A stretch of DNA of 64,000 nt from Alphaproteobacteria bacterium (GTDB taxonomy: Bacteria; Pseudomonadota; Alphaproteobacteria; MPNO01; UBA830): NCBI GenBank assembly GCA_038131485.1, contig JAYPPO010000001.1:150053-214052 (forward strand). The letters run 5' to 3'. The translations under genes were made by a program, and so were the position numbers. Numbering within the stretch: position 1 is the stretch's first letter; every line of letters starts with the position of its first letter. Of this stretch, positions 40,739 through 52,804 are shown in pieces. Under the pieces are notes generated by a model that had not been told where the DNA came from, searched no databases, and worked only from the letters and a program-made list of their open reading frames with translations.

Positions 40739-41734
40739 TTACGTATTCATCATCGGGGGCGCGAAGAGCTCCTCGAGCGCGACGCGCTTCGGCGTTAGCC
40801 CCTGTTCGAAGGAATAGTCTGCGATCGTCTCGAGCACGTTGCGATTGGTAGCGATGCCGTAGCGCACGAGAGGTGTCTCCAGCGCCGTCTTCGCCGCAGC
40901 CGGCAGCAGGCCGGCCGCGATATGGTTTTCGCAAAGCGCCATCCGATGGCGGTTAACGAGATCGTTCGCCGCCGTGAACGCTTCAAGGATCTTTTCCGGC
41001 AGCCACGGGTGCCTCTCCAGCGTGTCACGGCGGATCGCCATGCCATGGTTGATCGGGAACACCCCGGTCGCCTCAAAGTACCGCTTGCCCTCGGCGAGCG
41101 GGTCGAACAACAGGCGGATATCGCAGCGCTTACTGAGGTCCGCCGTCGACCGGTCGACTAGGTTGCCGCTGCGGATGTAGCGGAGCGTCGCGTCGAGCTC
41201 GCCCGAAATCAGCATCGAGCCGATGTTCTTCTCCGGTGGGATGCGGTTGACCGTGACGCCCGGTGGCGGCTCGAACCCGGTGGAGCCGCCGTGGCTCACC
41301 TCCGGGGTGCGCTCCATGAAGAATTCCATGTCCTTTGGCTCAACGCCGAATTCGTGCTGCAGCGCTCCTCGCGCCCACAGCGCGGCCGTCTGCTGATATT
41401 CGGGCACGCCGACCTTCTTGCCTCTGAGGTCGGCGGCTTCGTTTATACCGCGGTCTGTGCGGACCAGGATTGCTGTGTGATAGAACGCTCGCGTCGTAAA
41501 GACCGGTATGCCGACGAACCGGTCGTCGCCGCGCGCGACCGCCATCAGGAGCGACGACATCGACATCTCCGAGACGTCGAACTCGGCAAATTTGAGCTGC
41601 CGCCAGAACATTTCCGAAGGGTGCATTTCGGTGACCGTCGCTGCGACGCCGTCGACCGTGACGTACCCGTCGATGAAGGGTTGCGTGCGCGGGTTGGGCG
41701 ACAGGCCAAAGGAAAGCGACAGTAGTTCCGTCAT
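40739..41734 (-). CDS. 4,5-dihydroxyphthalate decarboxylase-like protein, paralog 2
   Basis: Start at ATG 41734 in an ATGA overlap with the upstream aldolase-like gene (MTELLSLSFGLSPNPRTQPFIDG...). Same family blocks as 39671..40711. Confidence 0.65.
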   Translation of the reverse strand: MTELLSLSFGLSPNPRTQPFIDGYVTVDGVAATVTEMHPSEMFWRQLKFAEFDVSEMSMSSLLMAVARGDDRFVGIPVFTTRAFYHTAILVRTDRGINEAADLRGKKVGVPEYQQTAALWARGALQHEFGVEPKDMEFFMERTPEVSHGGSTGFEPPPGVTVNRIPPEKNIGSMLISGELDATLRYIRSGNLVDRSTADLSKRCDIRLLFDPLAEGKRYFEATGVFPINHGMAIRRDTLERHPWLPEKILEAFTAANDLVNRHRMALCENHIAAGLLPAAAKTALETPLVRYGIATNRNVLETIADYSFEQGLTPKRVALEELFAPPMMNT

Positions 41735-42447
41735 GAAGACGGTGGCATCGCGCGGCGGCACCACGCTTCCCAAGTGCGTTCGAGGCCGAGCGGGCCGAGC
41801 TGGGTCTTCGTGCTCGCTTCGATTTCCTTCGCCGTCAGGTAATCGGGGGTGCCGATTTGCATAGCCTGCATCTGCAGCTTCGCATTGACCTGCAGATAGA
41901 CCGCTCTCATCACCGCTTCCTGCAGCGTCGCTCCGACGACGACGCAGCCGTGGCGCTTCATCAGAGCGATGGACTGGCCGCCGAGCGCGGCGCCGAGGTC
42001 GCGTCCCTGGTCCATGGTAACGACCAGGTGATCGCCTTCGCCGAACTTGTCACGAATGTCCCACGTCGGAATATCTTCGCCGATCACGCCGCAGGTATGC
42101 ATTACCGGGCGGATGGGCACGCCGGTCGACGCGAACGGGATAACCTCGTAGGAATGGTTGTGGATCACGGCACCCACGTCCCCGCGGAGCTCGTATATCG
42201 CGCCGTGGATCATGCGCTCGCCGTAGGGGCGCCTGCCGTTTAGGTCGATGCCGTCGCCGTCGAGGCGGAACTCCACAATGTCCTCCGCCTCGATCATTTC
42301 CGGCGCCCGCGCCCACGACAGAAGGTAGCGCTCGCGGTCCGTCGGATGGCGCACGCTCACATGGCCGAAGGAGTCGACGACGCCTTCATGCGCAAGAATG
42401 CGGTTCGCGATCACGAGATCAAGTAGGGTCTCAGGGCTGGCAGACAT
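41731..42447 (-). CDS. Class II aldolase/adducin family protein
   Basis: Start preferred at ATG 42447 (GGAG at -10). Motifs HVSVRHP, VIHNHS and RHGCVVVG. Confidence 0.8.
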   Translation of the reverse strand: MSASPETLLDLVIANRILAHEGVVDSFGHVSVRHPTDRERYLLSWARAPEMIEAEDIVEFRLDGDGIDLNGRRPYGERMIHGAIYELRGDVGAVIHNHSYEVIPFASTGVPIRPVMHTCGVIGEDIPTWDIRDKFGEGDHLVVTMDQGRDLGAALGGQSIALMKRHGCVVVGATLQEAVMRAVYLQVNAKLQMQAMQIGTPDYLTAKEIEASTKTQLGPLGLERTWEAWCRRAMPPSS

Positions 42448-42478
42448 TCGGTGCTCCGGCGGGCGTTTCGGCCTGTCT

Positions 42479-43087
42479 TCAGGCGTCAACGCGTTCCTCG
42501 CGGGAGGGCACGCGCTTGTGCAGGTCCCCGTAGAACTCTTCGACCGGCATGAAGCCCGGCGCCTCTCGGCACATCTTTTCGGTGATGTCCATCAGCTCGC
42601 CCTCGTCCATGTTGAAGTCCATGGGCTTCAGGAAAGGCTGGGTGACGTACCAGGGGCTGTCTGCGAAGAATTCGATGCCGTTGCCCTCGGGATCTGTTGC
42701 GTACATCGTCCAACAGATCCCGTGCGTGCCTGTCATGATCTTGGTGTCAGGGCGTTCACGCTGGATACGGAGATACATGGCGCGCAGGTCGGAGAGGGAC
42801 TCGAGCCGGAAGGCCATGTGATGGATAACGCCGCCGGCGCCCTTGGCGATGGTGTTGCCGGGGACGTCGTCCGGACGGCCGTCCACGAGAAAAATCTGAT
42901 GGTGTTCTTCCGGGTCAAGCGTCATGAAGATCATGGTGACGCCGGCGCCGGTCAGCCCGCCGTCCGTGCGTTCGAAACCGATGACGCGGGTGTAGAAGTC
43001 TTCCATCATTTCGATGTCCTTCACGACCAGCCCCATGTGGCTGAATCGCGCTGTGATCTTCTTGTCCGTCGTTGCGTCGACAGGCAT
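42479..43087 (-). CDS. VOC family protein (extradiol dioxygenase/glyoxalase fold)
   Basis: Start at ATG 43087 behind GGGAGGAA. FSHMGLVVKDIEMMEDFYTRVIGF is the VOC module. Confidence 0.8.
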   Translation of the reverse strand: MPVDATTDKKITARFSHMGLVVKDIEMMEDFYTRVIGFERTDGGLTGAGVTMIFMTLDPEEHHQIFLVDGRPDDVPGNTIAKGAGGVIHHMAFRLESLSDLRAMYLRIQRERPDTKIMTGTHGICWTMYATDPEGNGIEFFADSPWYVTQPFLKPMDFNMDEGELMDITEKMCREAPGFMPVEEFYGDLHKRVPSREERVDA

Positions 43088-43202
43088 GCCATTCCTCCCG
43101 AGAAATTTGTGGAACATATTCTGTGTCAGGGAAGGGCGAGAATCAATTCACGCCATACGAGAGTGCCCGGGCCGGGGGCGGCCAATAAGGTCCATAAAGA
43201 TA

Positions 43203-43230
43203 CGGCGGGCGAGGTTTCCCGCGCCCGCCG
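43203..43230 (-). terminator. Probable terminator of the selenoprotein operon
   Basis: 9-bp GC stem CGGCGGGCG/CGCCCGCCG with a 10-nt loop, 23 nt after the redoxin stop. On the minus strand it is followed by UAUCUUUAU. Confidence 0.5.
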
Positions 43231-43253
43231 AGTCTAAGGCCTGCAAATTCAAG

Positions 43254-43724
43254 TTATTTGCGCGATTCGTAGAAATTCACGAGTTTCACGACGTCTTCGG
43301 CCTGAATACGGCCGAGCGGTCCATCGGCGTAGCTCGACGCGACGACCTTGTTGTCTTCGCCCAGGATGAATTCGGATGGCTGGATGATCTGGCGGCGGTC
43401 TTCCCACCAAGAGCCCAACGCGTCTGCGATGTCGCGGGTAACTTCGAAGCCGACCGGGAAATTGACCTCGTTGGTTACTTCCTTCGCCTTGTCTTCCGGA
43501 TCGATGCTCGCCGCGACGACCGAAATCCCGAGCTTGTCTAGCTCAGCCTTCTGTTCTGCGAAGCCGACCAACTGCCGGCGGCAGTAGGGTCACCAATGAC
43601 CCCGATAGAAGAGGATGACCTTGTATTTAGAATTCAGGTCACCCGGAAGGTCCAGCGTGCCCCCGCCGACGGTCTTGATCGTCAAGCTGGGAAACGCGGC
43701 GCCAATCCCAAGTTTATCGGACAT
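43254..43724 (-). CDS. AhpC/TSA-type thiol-disulfide oxidoreductase (Prx-like redoxin) selenoprotein; in-frame TGA (43592..43590) read as Sec, motif W-U-P-Y-C
   Basis: ATG 43724 behind a perfect AAGGAGAA RBS. 44 sense codons (…KVILFYRGHW), then TGA, then PYCRRQLVGFAEQ... continue in the same frame into track ORF 43254..43571. The TGA replaces the first Cys of the redoxin WCPYC motif. Confidence 0.75.
43566..43591 (-). promoter_or_regulatory. Candidate SECIS hairpin of the redoxin selenoprotein
   Basis: mRNA GACC-CU-ACUGCC-GCC-GGCAGU-U-GGUC: 4-bp and 6-bp stems beginning at the GA of the UGA. The apical loop is small and slightly closer to the UGA than in textbook bacterial SECIS. Confidence 0.45.
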
Positions 43725-43837
43725 ACGTTCTCCTTTTCTTCACGAGGGCGGACCGCCCGAAGGTGGCCCGTCCCCGTAGAATGCACAAGCAGGGACGGCG
43801 GCGCAATGGACGCCACGGTAAGATCTAAGCAAAACAT

Positions 43838-44965
43838 TTACTCTGCGGTGTTGGAGGCCGCGTCCTCCTCTAACGCCATCTTTTGCGAGGCGAACGCGTC
43901 GATGCCGATTTCGGCGCGAAGAACGGCGGTGACCGCCGCCTTGTCCTCTTCGAGCGGCTGGCCGGTCGAATCGGCGACGCGGTCGATGGCGTTGAACAGG
44001 GCAGCGACGGCGGCCGAATCGACTAGCGCGTCCCCGCCCATCGCATCGACGATCGCCTGACGCGCGCGGATCAGCCTGTCGACGTCGGGGTCGAGCACCG
44101 CCTCTGCGAACTCGATCAGTAGCGCGCCTTGTTCGACGCCCGTGTCGCCCGCGCCTGACCCTTCAGTGATGGCGTGGAAGTTGAGGGTCTCACCAGCATG
44201 TTCGCTGCCCGCACGGAGCAGTACCGAATGGCTGGTCGTTCAATAGGTACACTGGTTGAGGGCGGAGATCCGGGCCGCGATCAGTTCGATCTGCAGGTGG
44301 CTGATCGCGCGGAATTCCTTCGTGAAGTCGCGCATCTGCGAGCCCGCTAGATACTGCGCGGCGACGACGTCGAAGAAGCTGCGCGCCTCGTCCGGCACTA
44401 GCGTAAGCGCGCGCCGAATGTTGGCCTCTGGACCGACGAAATAGTCTGCCTCGTTAGGTCCGAACTCGTCCCACGCGATATTTGGCGCCCACGCCTGATG
44501 CTGGCGCGCCTCCGTTGGCCGGTAGTGCGAAGGCTCGCCCCCTTGCGCGTCGGGCAGGGCGCGCGGTGGGATGCCCATGCCGTGCGCGAAGGTGTCGATC
44601 GCGATCGTGTGCGCAACGACGCTGACGATCTCGACGAAATGGGTCTCCGGGATCGCCGCGATGGTGCAGTCGTACCAGCTTCTGGTTAGGCGGCCCGGGT
44701 CGGCGACAATAAGGTGGATCATGTCGACCCAGTCACGTGGAAGATCGGTTCCGGCATCGTGCGAGTGTGTCACCAGGAAGGGCGAGAGCGCGTCGCGGAC
44801 TGCGACGCAGGTCGTGCAGCCCCGGGCATGGCGCGTTTCCGCCATTACCTCCACGCGCTGCTCGCCGGTCAGCCAGGCGCCCGGTTTCGACAGCCGGTCC
44901 CAGGCGCGAGCATGCGACTCGCTCAGCTCGTCGCGGATCTTATAGGGGGAGTCGGTGTAGTCCAT
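43838..44965 (-). CDS. Two-repeat AhpD/CMD-fold (alkylhydroperoxidase-like) selenoprotein; in-frame TGA (44242..44240) read as Sec, motif C-T-Y-U-T-T-S-H
   Basis: Track ORFs 44240..45037 and 43838..44098 share one frame and are separated only by the TGA plus 47 sense codons. Start taken at ATG 44965 (MDYTDSPYK) because 45037 would overlap tRNA-Sec. The N-terminal repeat carries an ordinary CTTC pair. Confidence 0.75.
44193..44235 (-). promoter_or_regulatory. Candidate SECIS hairpin of the AhpD-like selenoprotein
   Basis: Starts 7 nt after the UGA. Stems CCAGC/GCUGG, UUCG/CGAA and CUGCU/GGCAG, with a 3-nt bulge, a small internal loop and a 7-nt apical loop CCGUGCG. Confidence 0.6.
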
Positions 44966-45008
44966 AGTGGCTCTTTCCCGTCTGGTCGGCGTTCGTGCGC
45001 CGGGGATT

Positions 45009-45104
45009 TGGCGGAAAAGAGTGGGAGTCGAACCCACCAGGGACGTCTAACGCCCCTCACCGGTTTTGAAGACCGGGCGCCCCACCGGGGTGCGATTCTC
45101 TTCC
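45009..45104 (-). tRNA. selC: tRNA-Sec (anticodon UCA)
   Basis: 96 nt: GGAAGAGA...TCTTTTCC-G-CCA gives an 8-bp acceptor stem. Anticodon loop CUUCAAA (UCA), long variable arm GGTGAGGGGCGTTAGACGTCCCTGG, T-arm GTGGGTTCGACTCCCAC, encoded CCA. Confidence 0.9.
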
Positions 45105-45200
45105 GACCGACCGCAAAAACTAGCAGACAGTGCGAGTGGGCGGCAATGACGGCCGATAAGGGTGTCGGACTCCGGCCGCGCCTGCTAATTTTCGCCAGTC

Positions 45201-46115
45201 GTGACTGACCGTCCTTTTATCCTCGAAGCCTATCGCGGCTATGGTGCGCGCGGGCGCGCTGTATTGCGCGGGCGTATCTACCGCGAACCGCGATGCCGGT
45301 TCGCCTATTTACGCCGTCTCGCGCGGCGGGGGATCGGCGATATCGCGGTGACGGCACTTCTTGGAGGCGTCGAGGCGCGGGCCCGCACCGATCGGGACGG
45401 CTATTTCCGGCTCGCCTGGGACGCGCTTGATGACGGTCTCGAAGGTTGGCGTGACGTGTCGCTGAGCGCCGCCGGGACGACGGCGGCGGGTGAGTTACAC
45501 TTGCGCGGCGCTGCCAGCCGGTTCGTCGTCATCAGCGACATCGACGACACGGTGATGGTCACCGGCGTTGCCAACAAAGCGGCGATGTATTGGCGGCTGT
45601 TTCTGCAATCGCCCGACGCTCGCCGGGTATTTCCCGGCGCGCCGGCTTTCTATCGCGCGCTCCGCGACGGGACGGGGGGCGAGGACAATCCCGTCCTTTT
45701 CGTCTCGCGCGCGCCCTGGAGCATTTACGACGCATTGTCCCGGTTCTTCGCGAGTCAGGGAGTGGCAGAGCGGCCGATCCTGCTGATGCGCGAATGGGGG
45801 CTGACGCTTCAGAGCCCGATGCCGCGACGTGCGCGTGCCCACAAGCGCGAGCTGATCGACGAAATCCTCTCGGTCTACGGCAATGTTGATTGCGTGCTAA
45901 TTGGCGACAACGGCCAGCTAGATCCCGCCCTCTATGCTGATATCGCGGCGTCAAATCCTGGGATAATTCGCGCTGTCTATATCCGCGACGTCGCCGGGAC
46001 TGGCAGGGCCGATCCGCTGGAGAAACTGGATGCGTTGATTGTTAGCGCGGAAACGACCGACATGCTGCGGCACGCGGCTGCAGTGGGGCTGATCGCAGAC
46101 GTCACTCCCCGTTGA
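45201..46115 (+). CDS. App1-family (DUF2183) phosphatase-like protein
   Basis: GTG start; the VISDIDDTV and IGDNGQLDP motifs fit the HAD-like App1 catalytic domain. The 3' end overlaps selB convergently by 14 nt. Confidence 0.7.
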   Translation: MTDRPFILEAYRGYGARGRAVLRGRIYREPRCRFAYLRRLARRGIGDIAVTALLGGVEARARTDRDGYFRLAWDALDDGLEGWRDVSLSAAGTTAAGELHLRGAASRFVVISDIDDTVMVTGVANKAAMYWRLFLQSPDARRVFPGAPAFYRALRDGTGGEDNPVLFVSRAPWSIYDALSRFFASQGVAERPILLMREWGLTLQSPMPRRARAHKRELIDEILSVYGNVDCVLIGDNGQLDPALYADIAASNPGIIRAVYIRDVAGTGRADPLEKLDALIVSAETTDMLRHAAAVGLIADVTPR

Positions 46116-48027
46116 ACGCGTCGGCCGCTGGCCGGATGACCTCGTGGCCGTCGCCTATCCGCCGTGTGAATTTCACCTTGTCGAAAAATTCCAGCACCTC
46201 GATCGCAAGATTGCGGCCGATGTCGGAGGCGTCCCGAAAGGCGGCGGCAGTGACCATGCCGTCGGGCGCGTCGTCGGCGATCCGCTCAGTGATCTCGCCC
46301 AGCAAGCGCAGCGACGCCGGCGGGTAGAAGCGGTTCTTGGAGACTCGTACGACCATGCCGTGCCTTCCGGCGCGAACAAGCAGCGATTCCACCTTGCGGG
46401 GCTCGCTGCCGATTTCGCGGGCGATCTCGACGACAACGGGCGGCCGCAAGCCGCCGTCGAGCAAAATCGGTTCGATCTTGCGCCAGTTCGCGGCATCCGG
46501 GCCCTGCAGCGCCGGCCGATGGTCGGGCAGGCGGACGCCCATGCCTTCCTTAACGATGGCACCTTCGCGCACCAGTTCTGCGGCGATGGCGACCGCGGCA
46601 TCCGCGGGCAGTCGAATCCCAGTGCCGGCGAGGATCCGATTTTCGCCCGGGCCGACAACGTCCGGCGATTTTCTGTGGAAGGCGGCGAGGCCCTCCAGCA
46701 CGGCTATGCGAAGTTTCGCCCAGCGTGTTTCGGAGAAGGCAAGCGGCGCGCCTGGGACGCTGACGCGTTTCATTGCCACCAACTCTGCCATTGCTCCGAT
46801 GTCGTCCGGCGTCAGATTGCGCGCGGCGGCGAACCGGTCGAGATCGAGTCCATTGGGCGCAGCGTCGAGCAGGGCCGATAGCGCGGTCGCGTCGTCCGCT
46901 TCCTCCATCGCCGACAAGAAGGCGAGACGGCTGAGGTGCGCGCGGCCCCGCACCGGAGGGAAGATATCGACTACGCGTCCGCCGCCCACGGTGCGCTGTG
47001 CCGACTGGTCGCGGACGATCAGCCCGTCGCCGTGCACCGCCCCGACCGGTACGTCGAGCACAAGCTGGACCAACGCATCCTCGCCTGGCTGCACCGCGGC
47101 CCCTTCGAGTATCGCAACGCGCCCGGTCGTCTCCATCGCGCCGAGATGGACGTGCACCGGCGTCCAGTGCGTGAGCGGCTGCGCTTCCGACCCGAGCACG
47201 CGAAGCCGGACGTCGATCTTGCGGGCGGGGGGCGGAACGTTGCCAGTAACGACCCAGTCGCCGCGCTTGATCAGATCCTTGTCGAGCTCGGTGCCCGCGA
47301 GGTTGAGGGCGCAGCGCTGGCCCGCCTGGCCGCGCTCGGCTTGGGCGTTCTGCGCATGGACGCCTCGGACGCGCACCTCCATGCCAGCGCCGGCGATACG
47401 GGCTGGCTCGCCGGGTGAGATTTTCCCTGAAAACGCGGTCCCCGTGACGACCAGTCCCGCGCCGACGACGTTGAAGCGCCGGTCGATGGCGAGCCGAAAA
47501 TTGCCGGCCGTCGGGCGCCGTGGCAGGTCGCGCGCGCTCGCGATGAGGTGTTCCTTGAGCGCCTCGATTCCGTCGCCGGTCATGGCGGACAGCGGGAATA
47601 TCGGCGCGTCTTCGAGCGTGGTACCCGCCAGCAGCAGATCTATCTCTTCCGCCACCTCGACGGCGCGCTCTTCCGGCACCCGGTCGATTTTAGTCAGGGC
47701 CACCGCGCCGCGAGAGACGCCAAGTAGGTCAAGAATCGCAAGATGTTCTTGCGTCTGCGGCATCGGACCGTCGTCCGCCGCGACGATGAACAGCACGAAA
47801 TCGATGCCCGCGACACCGCACAGCATGTTGCGAATGAACTTTTCATGGCCGGGCACGTCGATGAAACCGATGGTCTCCGCCCCTTCGAGCGGTAGATACG
47901 CGAAGCCAAGATCAATGGTGAGGCTGCGCTTCTTCTCTTCCGGCAGCCGGTCTGTATCCACGCCCGTCAGCGCCTTGATCAGCAGCGTCTTGCCGTGATC
48001 GACGTGGCCCGCCGTGGCAATGATCAT
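46102..48027 (-). CDS. selB: Selenocysteine-specific translation elongation factor SelB
   Basis: MIIATAGHVDHGKTLLIKALTG...DRLPEEKKRSLTIDLGF GTPase domain plus long C-terminal winged-helix region; 641 aa. ATGA overlap with selA. Confidence 0.9.
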   Translation of the reverse strand: MIIATAGHVDHGKTLLIKALTGVDTDRLPEEKKRSLTIDLGFAYLPLEGAETIGFIDVPGHEKFIRNMLCGVAGIDFVLFIVAADDGPMPQTQEHLAILDLLGVSRGAVALTKIDRVPEERAVEVAEEIDLLLAGTTLEDAPIFPLSAMTGDGIEALKEHLIASARDLPRRPTAGNFRLAIDRRFNVVGAGLVVTGTAFSGKISPGEPARIAGAGMEVRVRGVHAQNAQAERGQAGQRCALNLAGTELDKDLIKRGDWVVTGNVPPPARKIDVRLRVLGSEAQPLTHWTPVHVHLGAMETTGRVAILEGAAVQPGEDALVQLVLDVPVGAVHGDGLIVRDQSAQRTVGGGRVVDIFPPVRGRAHLSRLAFLSAMEEADDATALSALLDAAPNGLDLDRFAAARNLTPDDIGAMAELVAMKRVSVPGAPLAFSETRWAKLRIAVLEGLAAFHRKSPDVVGPGENRILAGTGIRLPADAAVAIAAELVREGAIVKEGMGVRLPDHRPALQGPDAANWRKIEPILLDGGLRPPVVVEIAREIGSEPRKVESLLVRAGRHGMVVRVSKNRFYPPASLRLLGEITERIADDAPDGMVTAAAFRDASDIGRNLAIEVLEFFDKVKFTRRIGDGHEVIRPAADAFNGE

Positions 48028-49436
48028 TTGGCCGGAGAGAGTTTGAAAAGCTGAGCCGCAAACCCGGCCTCGTCGTCGAGGCAGCGAAGATCGAGGACGA
48101 AGCTGTCACCCTGGATACGGCCGATCACAGGAACAGGCAGGAAGCGGAACGCGCTAGCCAGCCCGTTCAGCGAGGAACCAGCCGACTTCGTTTTTTTCGG
48201 TACAACGGCGAGCCCGGCGCTCGGTATGCGCTGGGTCGGGAGCGCGCCGGAGCCGATCTGGCTGTCGCAGTCGGCGACCTCGACAACTCCGAAGTCGCCA
48301 ACGGCTTGCTGCAACGCCGGCTGCAGCCGAGAGGCCGCGGCGCGTATGTCTTCGACCGGCCGGGCGAGCCAGCGCAGCGTGGGGACCCGCGCGACCAGGC
48401 GGTCTGGATTGGCGTAGAGCCGGAGGGTGGCCGACAGCGCCGCGATCGTCATCTTGTCGCAGCGGAGTGCACGTTTCATCGGGTTCTTTTTGAGTTTCGC
48501 GACGATGTCTTTCCTGCCGACGATGATGCCGCATTGCGGTCCGCCCAGCAGCTTGTCGCCCGAGAACGTCACGACGTCCGCACCGTTCTTCATCGCCTCC
48601 ATCGGCGTGGGCTCGTGCGGGAGCCCAAAGCGTTCGAGATTGACAAGCGTGCCGCTGCCGAGGTCGATGGCGAAGGGCAGGCCGTTGTCGTGGCAAAGCT
48701 TCGCAAGCTTGGATTCCGGCACTTCGGCCGTGAAACCCTCGACAACATAGTTGCTGGTATGAACCTTCATGATCATGCCGGTCCTGCGCCCGATCGCCTC
48801 GGCATAGTCCTTCAAGTGCGTCCGATTGGTGGTACCGACTTCGATCAGCTTACAGCCCGACCGCGCCATGATGTCCGGCATGCGGAAGGAGCCGCCGATC
48901 TCGATCAGCTCGCCGCGCGACATCGGCACTTCCTTTCGGCTGGCGAGGCTGTTGAGAACCAGCATAACTGCAGCGGCGTTGTTGTTGACGATGGTGGCTG
49001 CTTCCGCGCCCGTCATCCGGGAGAGGATGCTCTCGATATGCTCGTCGCGGTCTCCGCGTTTTCCGGGCTCGATACGGTACTCGAGGTTGCTCGCGCCGCG
49101 CGCGGCTTCGGCGACGGCGTTGATCGCCTCTTCAGGAAGCGCGGCGCGGCCGAGATTCGTGTGAAGGACCGTGCCGGTCAGGTTGTAGACCGGTCGAAGC
49201 GAAGGGGTCGCCCGACGGTCGAGCTCCTCGGCAACGGCGGCGGCTATGGCGGGAATTTCCATAGCCGGGCCTCCCTCGTTGCGCAGCGTCTCGCGAAGCT
49301 TCGACAGCACTTGCCTGACGGCGTCGGTAGTTTCGCTCCGACCGAACTCCTCTGCGAGCGGCGCCATTTCGGCGTCGCCTAGCAGGCGGTCGACGCTCGG
49401 GAGCGCTGCAAGCGGGTTTCTGGTGTCGTCCGGCAT
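48024..49436 (-). CDS. selA: L-seryl-tRNA(Sec) selenium transferase SelA
   Basis: 470 aa; VNNNAAAV, KVHTSNY and the PLP-lysine block FSGDKLLGGPQCG are present. Confidence 0.9.
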   Translation of the reverse strand: MPDDTRNPLAALPSVDRLLGDAEMAPLAEEFGRSETTDAVRQVLSKLRETLRNEGGPAMEIPAIAAAVAEELDRRATPSLRPVYNLTGTVLHTNLGRAALPEEAINAVAEAARGASNLEYRIEPGKRGDRDEHIESILSRMTGAEAATIVNNNAAAVMLVLNSLASRKEVPMSRGELIEIGGSFRMPDIMARSGCKLIEVGTTNRTHLKDYAEAIGRRTGMIMKVHTSNYVVEGFTAEVPESKLAKLCHDNGLPFAIDLGSGTLVNLERFGLPHEPTPMEAMKNGADVVTFSGDKLLGGPQCGIIVGRKDIVAKLKKNPMKRALRCDKMTIAALSATLRLYANPDRLVARVPTLRWLARPVEDIRAAASRLQPALQQAVGDFGVVEVADCDSQIGSGALPTQRIPSAGLAVVPKKTKSAGSSLNGLASAFRFLPVPVIGRIQGDSFVLDLRCLDDEAGFAAQLFKLSPAK

Positions 49437-49597: not shown

Positions 49598-49798
49598 ATG
49601 CCAGTTCACGATGCGCTCTTGGCGCTGATCGCCAGGGGCGCCGGTCTCAATGCGCTAGAGAACGACCGTTATGATGTCGTGATGATCGCGTCGGTCACGG
49701 ACAATACAAAGACGCGCGGTATCGTGCTGAAGGCTGGTACCAGCCCGTTTGATGGCTCGAGGCTCCTCATGCTGGCTGAGAAATGCGGCTACACTTAA
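49598..49798 (+). CDS. Hypothetical small protein (66 aa)
   Basis: Inner ATG of track ORF 49505..49798 with GAGAGAG upstream. Moderate GC3 in a lower-GC intergenic region. No recognisable family. Confidence 0.3.
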   Translation: MPVHDALLALIARGAGLNALENDRYDVVMIASVTDNTKTRGIVLKAGTSPFDGSRLLMLAEKCGYT

Positions 49799-49871
49799 GT
49801 GGCCGACACACTGCGCGCGGCGGGCGGCCGGCCCTGACCGGATGAAGCCGCCGCAGTCCCAGGAGGGTGAT

Positions 49872-51089
49872 ATGGACGAAAACGTTTCACGCAATCTCCG
49901 GCCGTCGCTCAAAGCCTCCGCGCGGCGATTCACTGACATAGGCTCTTTTCCCGAACCGGCGCGTACCCGCGTCGGCCAGGTTTTCGAGGCGGCGAAAGCG
50001 TCGCTCGCCCGCGAGTTTGTCGGAATCACGGCGGGTGATATTCCGCGCGGCCTGTTTCCCGTCGTCAAGACCGGCATATCGATGGCGTCGGTACTCAAGG
50101 CTGCGGACCGCCTCCGGGCGGCGCTTGGCCATGACCTGTGGACGCAGGCCTGCTTTCCCGTAGAGGACGACGGTCCGTGGCGGTCGTGGCACAATATGCA
50201 CATCTTCCTCATGCGCCACGGCGTCTCTCTTGCCGAGCTGAGTGATGCCCAGCGCAATGCGGCGCTCGGCCTCGTCGAGGCGTGCTCCAGCGCCGCCGGC
50301 TACCGCAACGCGCGCGACATCATGCGCCTGAACGAGCATGCCGCCGAGATTACTGGCGACCACGAGGAATTCGGCGAATGGTGGTACTGGATCAGCCTTT
50401 TCGGCGAGCCATCCGAGACCGCCCCGTGGGGCTGGCAGATCGACGGTCACCACCTAATCGTCAACTGCTTCATCTACGGCGATCAGATGGTGATGACCCC
50501 CGATTTCCGCGGTTCCGAGCCGGTGCATGCGAAATCCGGCAAGTACGCGGGCACCCGTGTCTTCCACGAGGAACAGTCGCGCGGGCTTCAGTTCATGCAG
50601 GCGCTGTCGGCCAGCCAACAGGAACAGGCGGTCGTTTGCACTCAGCTGCCGCGCGATGTGATTACGACCGCGCAGATGGACAATCTCGAGCTGGCCTATG
50701 CGGGTATCCGTTCTGACGTGTTGGAGCCCACCCAGCAGAAGCTCTTGATGGAGCTGATCGAGATTTATGTCGGGCGCCTGCCCACGGGCCATGACAAGAT
50801 CCGGATGGACGAGGTGAAGAAGCATCTTGCGGAGACACATTTCTCCTGGATCGGCATGCATGAAGCGTCGGAGCCTTTCTACTACAGGGTGCACAGCCCA
50901 GTGATCCTGATCGAGTTCGATCATCTACCCGGCATCATCTGGGACAACATGGAGCCGACGCAGGACCATATCCACACCATCGTGCGGACGCCGAACGGCA
51001 ATGACTACGGCCGCGACCTGCTGCGCCAGCACTACGAGCACCACGACCACAGCCACGCGAATACTCCGCACCGAAAGGGGCTGGTGTGA
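49872..51089 (+). CDS. DUF3500 family protein
   Basis: ATG 49872 behind AGGAGGG. The block WYWISLFGEPSETAPWGWQIDGHHLIVN matches my recollection of DUF3500. Confidence 0.7.
   Translation: MDENVSRNLRPSLKASARRFTDIGSFPEPARTRVGQVFEAAKASLAREFVGITAGDIPRGLFPVVKTGISMASVLKAADRLRAALGHDLWTQACFPVEDDGPWRSWHNMHIFLMRHGVSLAELSDAQRNAALGLVEACSSAAGYRNARDIMRLNEHAAEITGDHEEFGEWWYWISLFGEPSETAPWGWQIDGHHLIVNCFIYGDQMVMTPDFRGSEPVHAKSGKYAGTRVFHEEQSRGLQFMQALSASQQEQAVVCTQLPRDVITTAQMDNLELAYAGIRSDVLEPTQQKLLMELIEIYVGRLPTGHDKIRMDEVKKHLAETHFSWIGMHEASEPFYYRVHSPVILIEFDHLPGIIWDNMEPTQDHIHTIVRTPNGNDYGRDLLRQHYEHHDHSHANTPHRKGLV

Positions 51090-51199: not shown

Positions 51200-52804
<1,605 letters not shown>

Follow-up and report, generated by a model that had tools for sequence, protein, structure and literature searches.

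Sequence analysis of a predicted Prx-like 1 selenoprotein gene and its SECIS hairpin in an alphaproteobacterial selenocysteine gene cluster

Selenoproteins of the peroxiredoxin-like 1 (Prx-like 1) family are known from the 2008 Global Ocean Sampling (GOS) survey, Table 2 of which lists "Prx-like 1, pfam00578, UxxC" with 225 selenoprotein sequences from 37 samples (PMC2398784). The same table and PMC1088965 define the motif as UxxC, with selenocysteine (Sec, U) in the first position, and not as TxxU. One GOS read carries adjacent Prx-like 1 and AhpD-like 2 genes (PMC2398784), and a 2026 review lists in its Table 1 a Prx-like thiol:disulfide oxidoreductase (PF00578, UxxC) predicted with high confidence, equating NF041238 with the Sargasso "hypothetical protein 1" (CxxU) and stating that Prx-like and AhpD-like genes cluster operonically (PMC13188914). 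Here we describe a redoxin gene at 43254..43724 on the minus strand of a 64,000-nt stretch of alphaproteobacterial DNA (the window; contig JAYPPO010000001.1 of assembly GCA_038131485.1, positions 150,053 to 214,052). Judging from sequence comparison, it is highly likely that this gene, which is interrupted by an in-frame TGA, specifies a cytosolic Prx-like 1 (UxxC) selenoprotein of 156 aa with thiol-disulfide oxidoreductase chemistry, decoded by means of a selenocysteine insertion sequence (SECIS) that we refer to as hairpin B.

The window protein carries the marks by which the family is recognized, namely the pfam00578 domain, an in-frame TGA in a UxxC motif with Sec in first position, similarity to listed members and Cys homologs at the Sec column. 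It also has the signature FYRGHW-U-P[YF]-CRRQL...IQPSEF, and shares with the family its habitat signal (marine Alphaproteobacteria) and an AhpD-like neighbor gene. In Dataset S1 of PMC2398784, the entries under "#Prx-like 1" include FYRGHWUPYC/FC reads and 30 "GHWUP" strings; one example is EYKVILFYRGHWUPFCRRQLVGFEEQKAALEKLGVSVVAASIDPADKAQ. By BLASTP, reads from this dataset match the window protein at 84% over 49 aa and 55% over 127 aa, in line with the proposal of the initial annotation, a reading of the window made from its letters, to align the product with both AhpC/TSA and Prx-like families. As described in PMC1088965, PMC2398784 and PMC13188914, the published family is broadly drawn and takes in secreted FWTTWUPFC-type proteins and other sequences as well; the window gene falls in one cytosolic subfamily of it.

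The finding is thus a rediscovery of a known selenoprotein family, published 2004-2008, and the scientific gain is small, given that the family had by then been reported with its UxxC motif, its abundance in the sea and the occasional AhpD-like pairing, all of which the 2026 review sums up. What goes modestly beyond the portions of this literature that we consulted is a covariation-supported SECIS, a frequent place directly behind the genes for tRNA-Sec and selAB, and the lack of an NCBIfam model scoring above its cut-off; neither such a SECIS nor the tRNA-Sec/selAB linkage was found in those portions of PMC1088965, PMC2398784 and PMC13188914. The practical value lies in annotation, as the gene is stored in databases either as pieces of 59 aa and 104-105 aa or at full length with a spurious Trp. 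A family hidden Markov model together with the covariation-supported SECIS would fix this fragmented annotation.

A redoxin gene running through an in-frame UGA

On the minus strand, the gene reads from ATG 43724..43722 to TAA 43256..43254 and is preceded by the Shine-Dalgarno-like AAGGAGAA (43728..43735), the GGAG core of which ends 5 nt before the start codon. Forty-four codons ending ...KVILFYRGHW lead up to the TGA (43590..43592), which is codon 45 and the first position of U-P-Y-C; beyond it, the same frame continues as PYCRRQLVGF..., PYCRRQLVGFAEQ..., up to the TAA, giving the composite motif FYRGHW-U-PYC. A mechanical list of open reading frames (ORFs) splits this coding sequence into 43590..43724 and 43254..43571. 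The initial annotation had rejoined the two pieces, with the same ATG, ribosome-binding site and TGA, into a single AhpC/TSA redoxin whose U-x-x-C site is hidden by the TGA, and all of these elements were borne out. Specifically, the Pfam domain AhpC-TSA (PF00578) aligns with the 156-aa read-through product end to end: without a break at the TGA, residues 7-129 pair with positions 1-123 of the 124-position model (E 2.8e-21; 76.2 bits versus a cut-off of 26), and the Redoxin domain matches with an E value of 4.2e-13.

Scanning one genome per GTDB species, we found a relative of the redoxin gene in 403 genomes; locus counts out of 80 given below refer to the best 80 of these 403 species-level genome loci (identity 52-88%). 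They come mainly from uncultured marine Alphaproteobacteria/Rhodospirillaceae, and also from Hyphomicrobiaceae, Devosia, some Burkholderiales and one gammaproteobacterium. TGA occupies the Sec column in 80/80 of these loci and in three metagenome loci besides, the protein being conserved, and under purifying selection, on both sides of it. Since the AhpC-TSA domain aligns across the TGA and the TGA column is kept throughout the 80 loci, the arrangement is far beyond chance, and we read the interrupted frame as one predicted selenoprotein gene.

A search of 5.8 billion proteins returned 749 matches, in which two classes stand out. Full-length homologs of ~156 aa, 55-78% identical, begin at the same Met as the window gene, so that the 44 codons before the TGA have their counterpart in the N-termini of redoxins. 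Many other matches are proteins of 104-105 aa, 73-99% identical, which cover the C-terminal 67% only and are labeled "peroxiredoxin"; these represent the same shortened call as the window ORF, and the downstream Leu/Val starts, which the initial annotation had raised as an objection, are database truncations. The corresponding N-terminal pieces are deposited separately as 59-aa "hypothetical proteins" (e.g., MAQ03557.1). The false TTG start of the 105-aa ORF is the Leu codon that follows Gln in ...C-R-R-Q-L-V-G-F, and lies in the apical loop of hairpin B (43569..43571). As the UUR of this loop is fixed (80/80) by selection at the RNA level (see below), it is the SECIS that supplies gene callers with this misleading start. 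No NCBIfam model scores above its cut-off for the redoxin gene, which is why it is still fragmented in databases. Rare natural Cys orthologs align with the TGA column as well: P0003, P0007 and P0009 read HWCP[YF]C, and a TGC codon was confirmed in locus L004, near which the Sec machinery was not found.

A few deviating copies were also seen at the Sec column. Two metagenome contigs, loci L085:250-720 and L086:1187-1867, have CAA (Gln) and CGA (Arg) codons there, with hairpin B intact, and the "R" and "Q" of proteins P0029 and P0062 are encoded by genuine codons, CGA and CAA, each on a single contig that is short or poor. The codon is the sole difference between L085 and L079 across the 51 nt compared; in L086 the C-terminus is frameshifted, and another part of the locus holds an AhpD-related gene with a TGA. 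The deviating copies have probably decayed or arisen from assembly errors, and they follow no pattern.

At the 3' end of the gene, a putative terminator, consisting of a GC hairpin with a T-rich tail, is situated ~30 nt past the stop codon (43205..43222, minus strand). It was a pattern match in a consensus scan, and coincides with the hairpin with which the initial annotation had closed the transcription unit. A scan of 43000..45300 for sigma-70 promoters found none, a result that is neutral as to whether the redoxin gene has its own promoter in the 113-nt spacer before it.

Overlapping hairpins downstream of the UGA

The minimal SECIS of Escherichia coli fdhF is a 17-nt stem-loop located 11 nt after the UGA, with G-U in its loop. 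The consensus bacterial SECIS (bSECIS) model of Zhang and Gladyshev, as given in Fig. 2A of PMC13188914, has a loop of 3-9 nt, a stem of 4-16 bp and a distance of 16-37 nt from the UGA, with a G at loop position 1-2 followed by G or U and a minimum free energy of <= -7.5 kcal/mol. In the window, hairpin B (GCCGGC-AGUUG-GUCGGC; 43563..43579, minus strand) agrees with this published model in every respect. It occupies positions +14..+30, with a 10-nt spacer after the UGA and 16 nt between UGA and loop, and consists of the 6-bp stem GCCGGC/GUCGGC and the 5-nt apical loop AGUUG (43573..43569). Like the consensus and fdhF elements, it sits just 3' of the UGA within the reading frame (the spacer being 10 nt, and 11 nt in fdhF), has a GC-rich upper stem of 6 bp and presents G then U at positions 2-3 of a 5-nt loop. 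It differs from them in that it has no bulged U, a loop of AGUUG instead of GGUC, and a spacing at the lower limit of the model.

The initial annotation had pointed to another structure, a stable hairpin starting at the UGA itself, and had flagged its short spacing and asked for alternative folds. This hairpin A (GACC..ACUGCC-GCC-GGCAGU..GGUC; 43566..43591, minus strand) does exist, with a predicted energy of -14.9 kcal/mol in isolation, and spans the stretch between the G of the UGA and +27; however, it is not the conserved element and lacks covariation. The two hairpins overlap and are mutually exclusive, hairpin B lying 12 nt further 3'. In a gap-free alignment of 80 distinct Sec-form sequences (A3), 99.0% of the cells of hairpin B are paired, against 90.4% for hairpin A, and 3/6 pairs of hairpin B but 1/10 pairs of hairpin A are changed on both sides. 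The covariation score of hairpin A was attained by 113/500 shuffles, and that of hairpin B, tested together with its lower stem, by 0/500. Moreover, 4/10 pairs of hairpin A are broken in 19-23 of the 80 sequences, whereas no pair of hairpin B is broken systematically. Its varying pairs run through CG/UA/UG/GC, GU/GC/AU/UA/UG and GC/GU/UA, and some compensating changes alter the amino acid, for example Gly->Asp paired with CGC->CGU. In an independent run, RNAalifold predicted hairpin B as the sole structure. We therefore rejected hairpin A as the SECIS on covariation, spacing (10 nt from UGA to loop, versus 16-37 nt) and RNAalifold; its existence probably follows from the palindromic nature of the Cys-Arg-Arg-Gln codons.

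Codon usage points in the same direction. UUR encodes the loop Leu in 80/80 sequences, but makes up 19% of the other Leu codons in these genes and 8% of those in the window (63.5% GC); CAG encodes the Gln at hairpin B in 80/80. For the Pro immediately before the stem, on the other hand, the four codons are used about evenly. In the window, hairpin B has a predicted energy of -10.2 kcal/mol, or -15.2 kcal/mol in total when extended by the optional lower stem CUGC/GCAG (43556..43584, minus strand). This lower stem was considered as a conserved part of the SECIS and rejected as lineage-specific, with 66% of cells paired across the family. A search of 43000..45300 against Rfam, with E values up to 1, returned the tRNA-Sec as the only significant hit and no match at the hairpin.

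When the 12 nt that begin with the UGA are made unavailable for pairing, as a ribosome would make them, the minimum-energy fold is hairpin B. One may thus picture that a ribosome arriving at the UGA (43592..43590) would unwind the first ~12 nt downstream, leaving hairpin B (43579..43563) at the mRNA entrance, where SelB carrying Sec-tRNASec would bind the G-U-containing apical loop, with Sec being inserted instead of termination. The AhpD-related selenoprotein gene upstream has its own hairpin (CUGCUC-CGUGC-GGGCAG; 44221..44205, minus strand), conserved in 22 sequences as CUGCUC-CGUGC-GRGCAG. It follows its UGA after 24 nt and has the same format of a 6-bp stem and a 5-nt N-G-U-N-N loop, which fits a single SelB recognizing both genes.

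Active site and competing explanations

The initial annotation had described W-U-P-Y-C as a peroxiredoxin/thioredoxin-fold motif with Sec in place of the nucleophilic Cys. Our analysis supports a UxxC on a thioredoxin fold, but not a peroxiredoxin (Prx) site. In a single-sequence search, the nearest solved structures were ResA-type W-C-x-x-C oxidoreductases, followed by BCP and other Prx, whereas in a family-profile search peroxiredoxins led the PDB sequence matches. An AlphaFold (AF2) model of the natural Cys ortholog P0003, which is 69% identical to the window protein (pLDDT 91.7, pTM 0.88), was closest overall in Foldseek to BCP/Prx6/Prx1 (TM ~0.8) and also matched ResA (1su9, TMt 0.82). 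What the window protein has in common with canonical Prx (BCP/PrxQ, Prx6, AhpC) and with the Sec-containing PrxU is the fold, the AhpC-TSA domain and a Cys at the peroxidatic position, C48. In profile alignments to 6q5v, 2cx3, 2ywn and 5xbs, this C48 falls on the peroxidatic Cys, but it is the only one of the four Prx catalytic residues to be kept: R41 takes the place of the Pro and Sec45 that of the Thr in P-x-x-x-T/S-x-x-C, and the invariant P116 that of the catalytic Arg before the ...FIID strand, where K-R-A-V-F-I aligns with Q-P-S-E-F-I. Relative to the TxxU of PrxU, the Sec of the window protein lies three residues N-terminal.

Alignment with hhalign to ResA (96% probability) places HWUPYC on TWCEPC and IQPSEFIL on PLPTTFLI, the cis-Pro loop. 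The core fold, the W-C-x-x-C position and the cis-Pro-type loop (QPSEF versus LPTTF) are thus shared with ResA/TlpA/StoA (PDB 3c71, 1su9). The differences are that ResA/TlpA are membrane-anchored, extracytoplasmic and use Cys, whereas the window protein uses Sec, has Prx-like C-terminal elements and is structurally nearer to BCP/Prx overall. Its N-terminus, MSDKLGIGAAFPSLTIKTVGGG, contains no hydrophobic segment, and the first beta-strand starts at residue 14, which is why we predict the protein to be cytosolic, unlike ResA/TlpA. None of the NCBIfam models is close to its cut-off (PrxU NF040737, 26.7 versus 270; ResA, 24.7 versus 170; SelL-related NF040769, 23.3 versus 120). The alignments depict a Prx-like scaffold with a thioredoxin/ResA-like active site, the UxxC facing a cis-Pro-type proline, and such a site favors a thiol-disulfide oxidoreductase. 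In the cycle that we envisage, Sec45 would be the nucleophile that attacks a disulfide or sulfenate of the substrate; the selenenylsulfide that it makes with Cys48 would then be re-reduced, completing a thiol/disulfide (or sulfenate) cycle for which the AhpD-related CxxU selenoprotein encoded upstream would be the probable partner.

If the TGA were a real stop, the locus would be a pseudogene, or else a pair of genes, one for a peptide of 44 aa and one, with its start at TTG 43571, for a protein of 105 aa, which is how public annotations treat it with their 104-105-aa "peroxiredoxin" and 59-aa "hypothetical protein." We give this almost no chance, given a TGA kept in all 80 species with purifying selection on either side, a continuous Pfam domain and the Sec machinery next door; the 105-aa piece, for its part, has neither the redox motif nor the initial beta-strands of the fold, and begins at a Leu codon of the SECIS loop. 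Decoding of the TGA as Trp or another standard amino acid, be it by an alternative code or by near-cognate readthrough, might seem to be indicated by the dozens of homologs deposited with W at the Sec column. Indeed, most full-length entries show HW-W-PYC. However, their underlying codon is TGA, and a code 11 translation of the contigs does not match the deposited protein; the W entries are code-4 gene calls on short metagenome contigs. Four genes of the window, namely selA, selB and those for the glyoxalase-fold protein and the aldolase, use TGA as their ordinary stop, and the Trp right beside the Sec codon is TGG (HW is CAY TGG in 80/80 loci), which excludes a TGA=Trp code. With natural orthologs carrying Cys and not Trp, the probability of such decoding is close to nil.

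Granting a true selenoprotein, one can still ask which hairpin and which chemistry apply. Hairpin A is the minimum-energy fold of the free window RNA and pairs in 90% of cells across the family, and a functional SECIS starting inside the UGA is nevertheless very improbable: besides covariation no better than that of shuffled alignments, broken pairs, a loop (GCC) outside the published distance and its absence from the RNAalifold prediction, its stem includes the UGA and must hence be melted when this codon is in the A site. A different chemistry would be that of a peroxidase, in which peroxide oxidizes Sec45 to a selenenic acid and Cys48 resolves it, in the manner of GPx or Sec-containing Prx, with the AhpD-related protein serving as reductant; the pair would then be a Sec-based analog of the mycobacterial AhpC/AhpD system. 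Selenocysteine reacts fast with peroxides without Prx-type activation, the overall fold and the best profile matches in the PDB are those of peroxiredoxins, and the AhpD-family gene is a conserved neighbor in 17/80 loci. We still think a peroxidase unlikely, with Arg41, Sec45 and Pro116 standing where Prx have Pro, Thr and Arg, a PrxU model score far below its cut-off and 63/80 loci without the AhpD-related partner. The Sec is, in addition, at the first position of a CxxC-type motif and not at the peroxidatic position of Sec-containing Prx (TxxU; PMC1088965). Of the "peroxide/thiol-redox" role that the initial annotation had assigned to the gene pair, the peroxide half is therefore unsupported, the site being thioredoxin/ResA-like.

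Several observations do weigh against a thiol-disulfide oxidoreductase decoded through hairpin B. The 16-nt spacing of the hairpin is at the bottom of the published 16-37 nt range and differs from the 24 nt in the AhpD-related gene, which would be served by the same SelB. Most of its stem positions are also constrained by the conserved C-R-R-Q-L-V-G, so that part of the 99% pairing reflects protein conservation, and the independent RNA evidence consists of the compensating changes and the synonymous-codon bias only. In free window RNA, hairpin A (-14.9 kcal/mol) competes with hairpin B (-10.2, or -15.2 kcal/mol with the lower stem). As to the chemistry, which we read from alignment, a Sec residue could reduce peroxides without the Thr and Arg of Prx; and the agreement of the ResA sequence supplied to hhalign with the retrieved ResA covers its first ~100 residues only.

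Gene neighborhood and selenocysteine machinery

The redoxin gene is the last in a series of minus-strand genes that runs selA, selB, tRNA-Sec, AhpD-related gene and redoxin gene, the selenocysteine machinery lying within 6 kb of the latter. The L-seryl-tRNA(Sec) selenium transferase gene selA (48024..49436; TIGR00474, E 9.9e-177) is followed by selB for the Sec-specific elongation factor (46102..48027; TIGR00475, E 3e-129), the product of which shows the SelB beta-barrel and winged-helix Pfam domains. The tRNA-Sec, with anticodon UCA, is at 45009..45104 (ARAGORN; Rfam RF01852, 76.2 bits versus a gathering score of 47). The AhpD-related (seleno)protein (43838..44965) belongs to NF041238 (AhpD_rel_CFYUT; E 7.6e-133, 443 bits versus a cut-off of 175) and has a C-T-Y-U motif with the TGA at 44242..44240; as with the redoxin gene, the mechanical ORF list splits it (44240..45037 and 43838..44098). 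Its TAA (43840..43838) lies 113 nt upstream of the redoxin ATG, the distance at which the initial annotation had placed an AhpD-like gene, and from this adjacency the two genes would form an operon.

Across the relatives, an AhpD-related gene is found directly upstream on the same strand in 17/80 loci, at gaps of 29-181 bp and always with its own TGA, and the closest relatives of the window are among these 17. Within 6 kb of the redoxin gene, selB is present in 26/80 loci and selA in 24/80. A tRNA-Sec scan of 59 Sec-form loci was positive in 24, and in 8 of these no gene separates the tRNA-Sec from the redoxin gene, which begins 27-244 nt downstream of it. These eight are L005 (1141-1375), L028, L029, L035, L047, L048, L050 and L061. 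Because the AhpD-related gene is absent between tRNA-Sec and redoxin gene in L005, the closest relative, and in the loci like it, it looks like a variable insertion/deletion in the cluster. In L046 and L066, two tandem AhpD-related selenoprotein genes, each with C-F-Y-TGA, precede the redoxin gene.

A speculative extension, which we regard as rather doubtful, is that the Prx-like 1 (UxxC) and AhpD-related (CxxU) proteins constitute a dedicated two-selenoprotein relay, a Sec-Sec counterpart of AhpC/AhpD. If so, its position directly behind tRNA-Sec/selAB in many marine Alphaproteobacteria would single the relay out as the chief reason why these lineages retain the Sec trait. A still weaker addition to this idea would treat the mutually exclusive hairpins A and B as a switch thrown by the ribosome, with the SECIS exposed only during UGA decoding.

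Some further features of the neighborhood deserve mention. The selA stop and selB start overlap by 4 nt (48024..48027, minus strand) in an ATGA-type junction, which suggests translational coupling of the two genes. The cluster of selAB, tRNA-Sec and selenoprotein genes is broken up by a plus-strand ORF of 304 aa (45201..46115) between tRNA-Sec and selB. Its overlap with the selB stop comprises 14 nt; the ORF has a match to the Pfam APP1_cat phosphatidate-phosphatase domain (1.2e-39), and its conservation in the closest locus, L005, amounts to 83%. Beyond selA lie a gene for a DUF3500 protein (49749..51089, plus strand; 3e-98) and prfC, encoding release factor 3 (51200..52804, minus strand; 1e-227), whose place beside a Sec-decoding cluster may be a coincidence. 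Downstream of the redoxin gene, the minus strand encodes a glyoxalase/VOC-fold protein (42479..43117) and a class II aldolase/adducin-family protein (41731..42489). These two genes recur at most 6 kb downstream in 11/80 and 14/80 loci, respectively, with identities of 53-90%, and represent conserved synteny in the closest clade.

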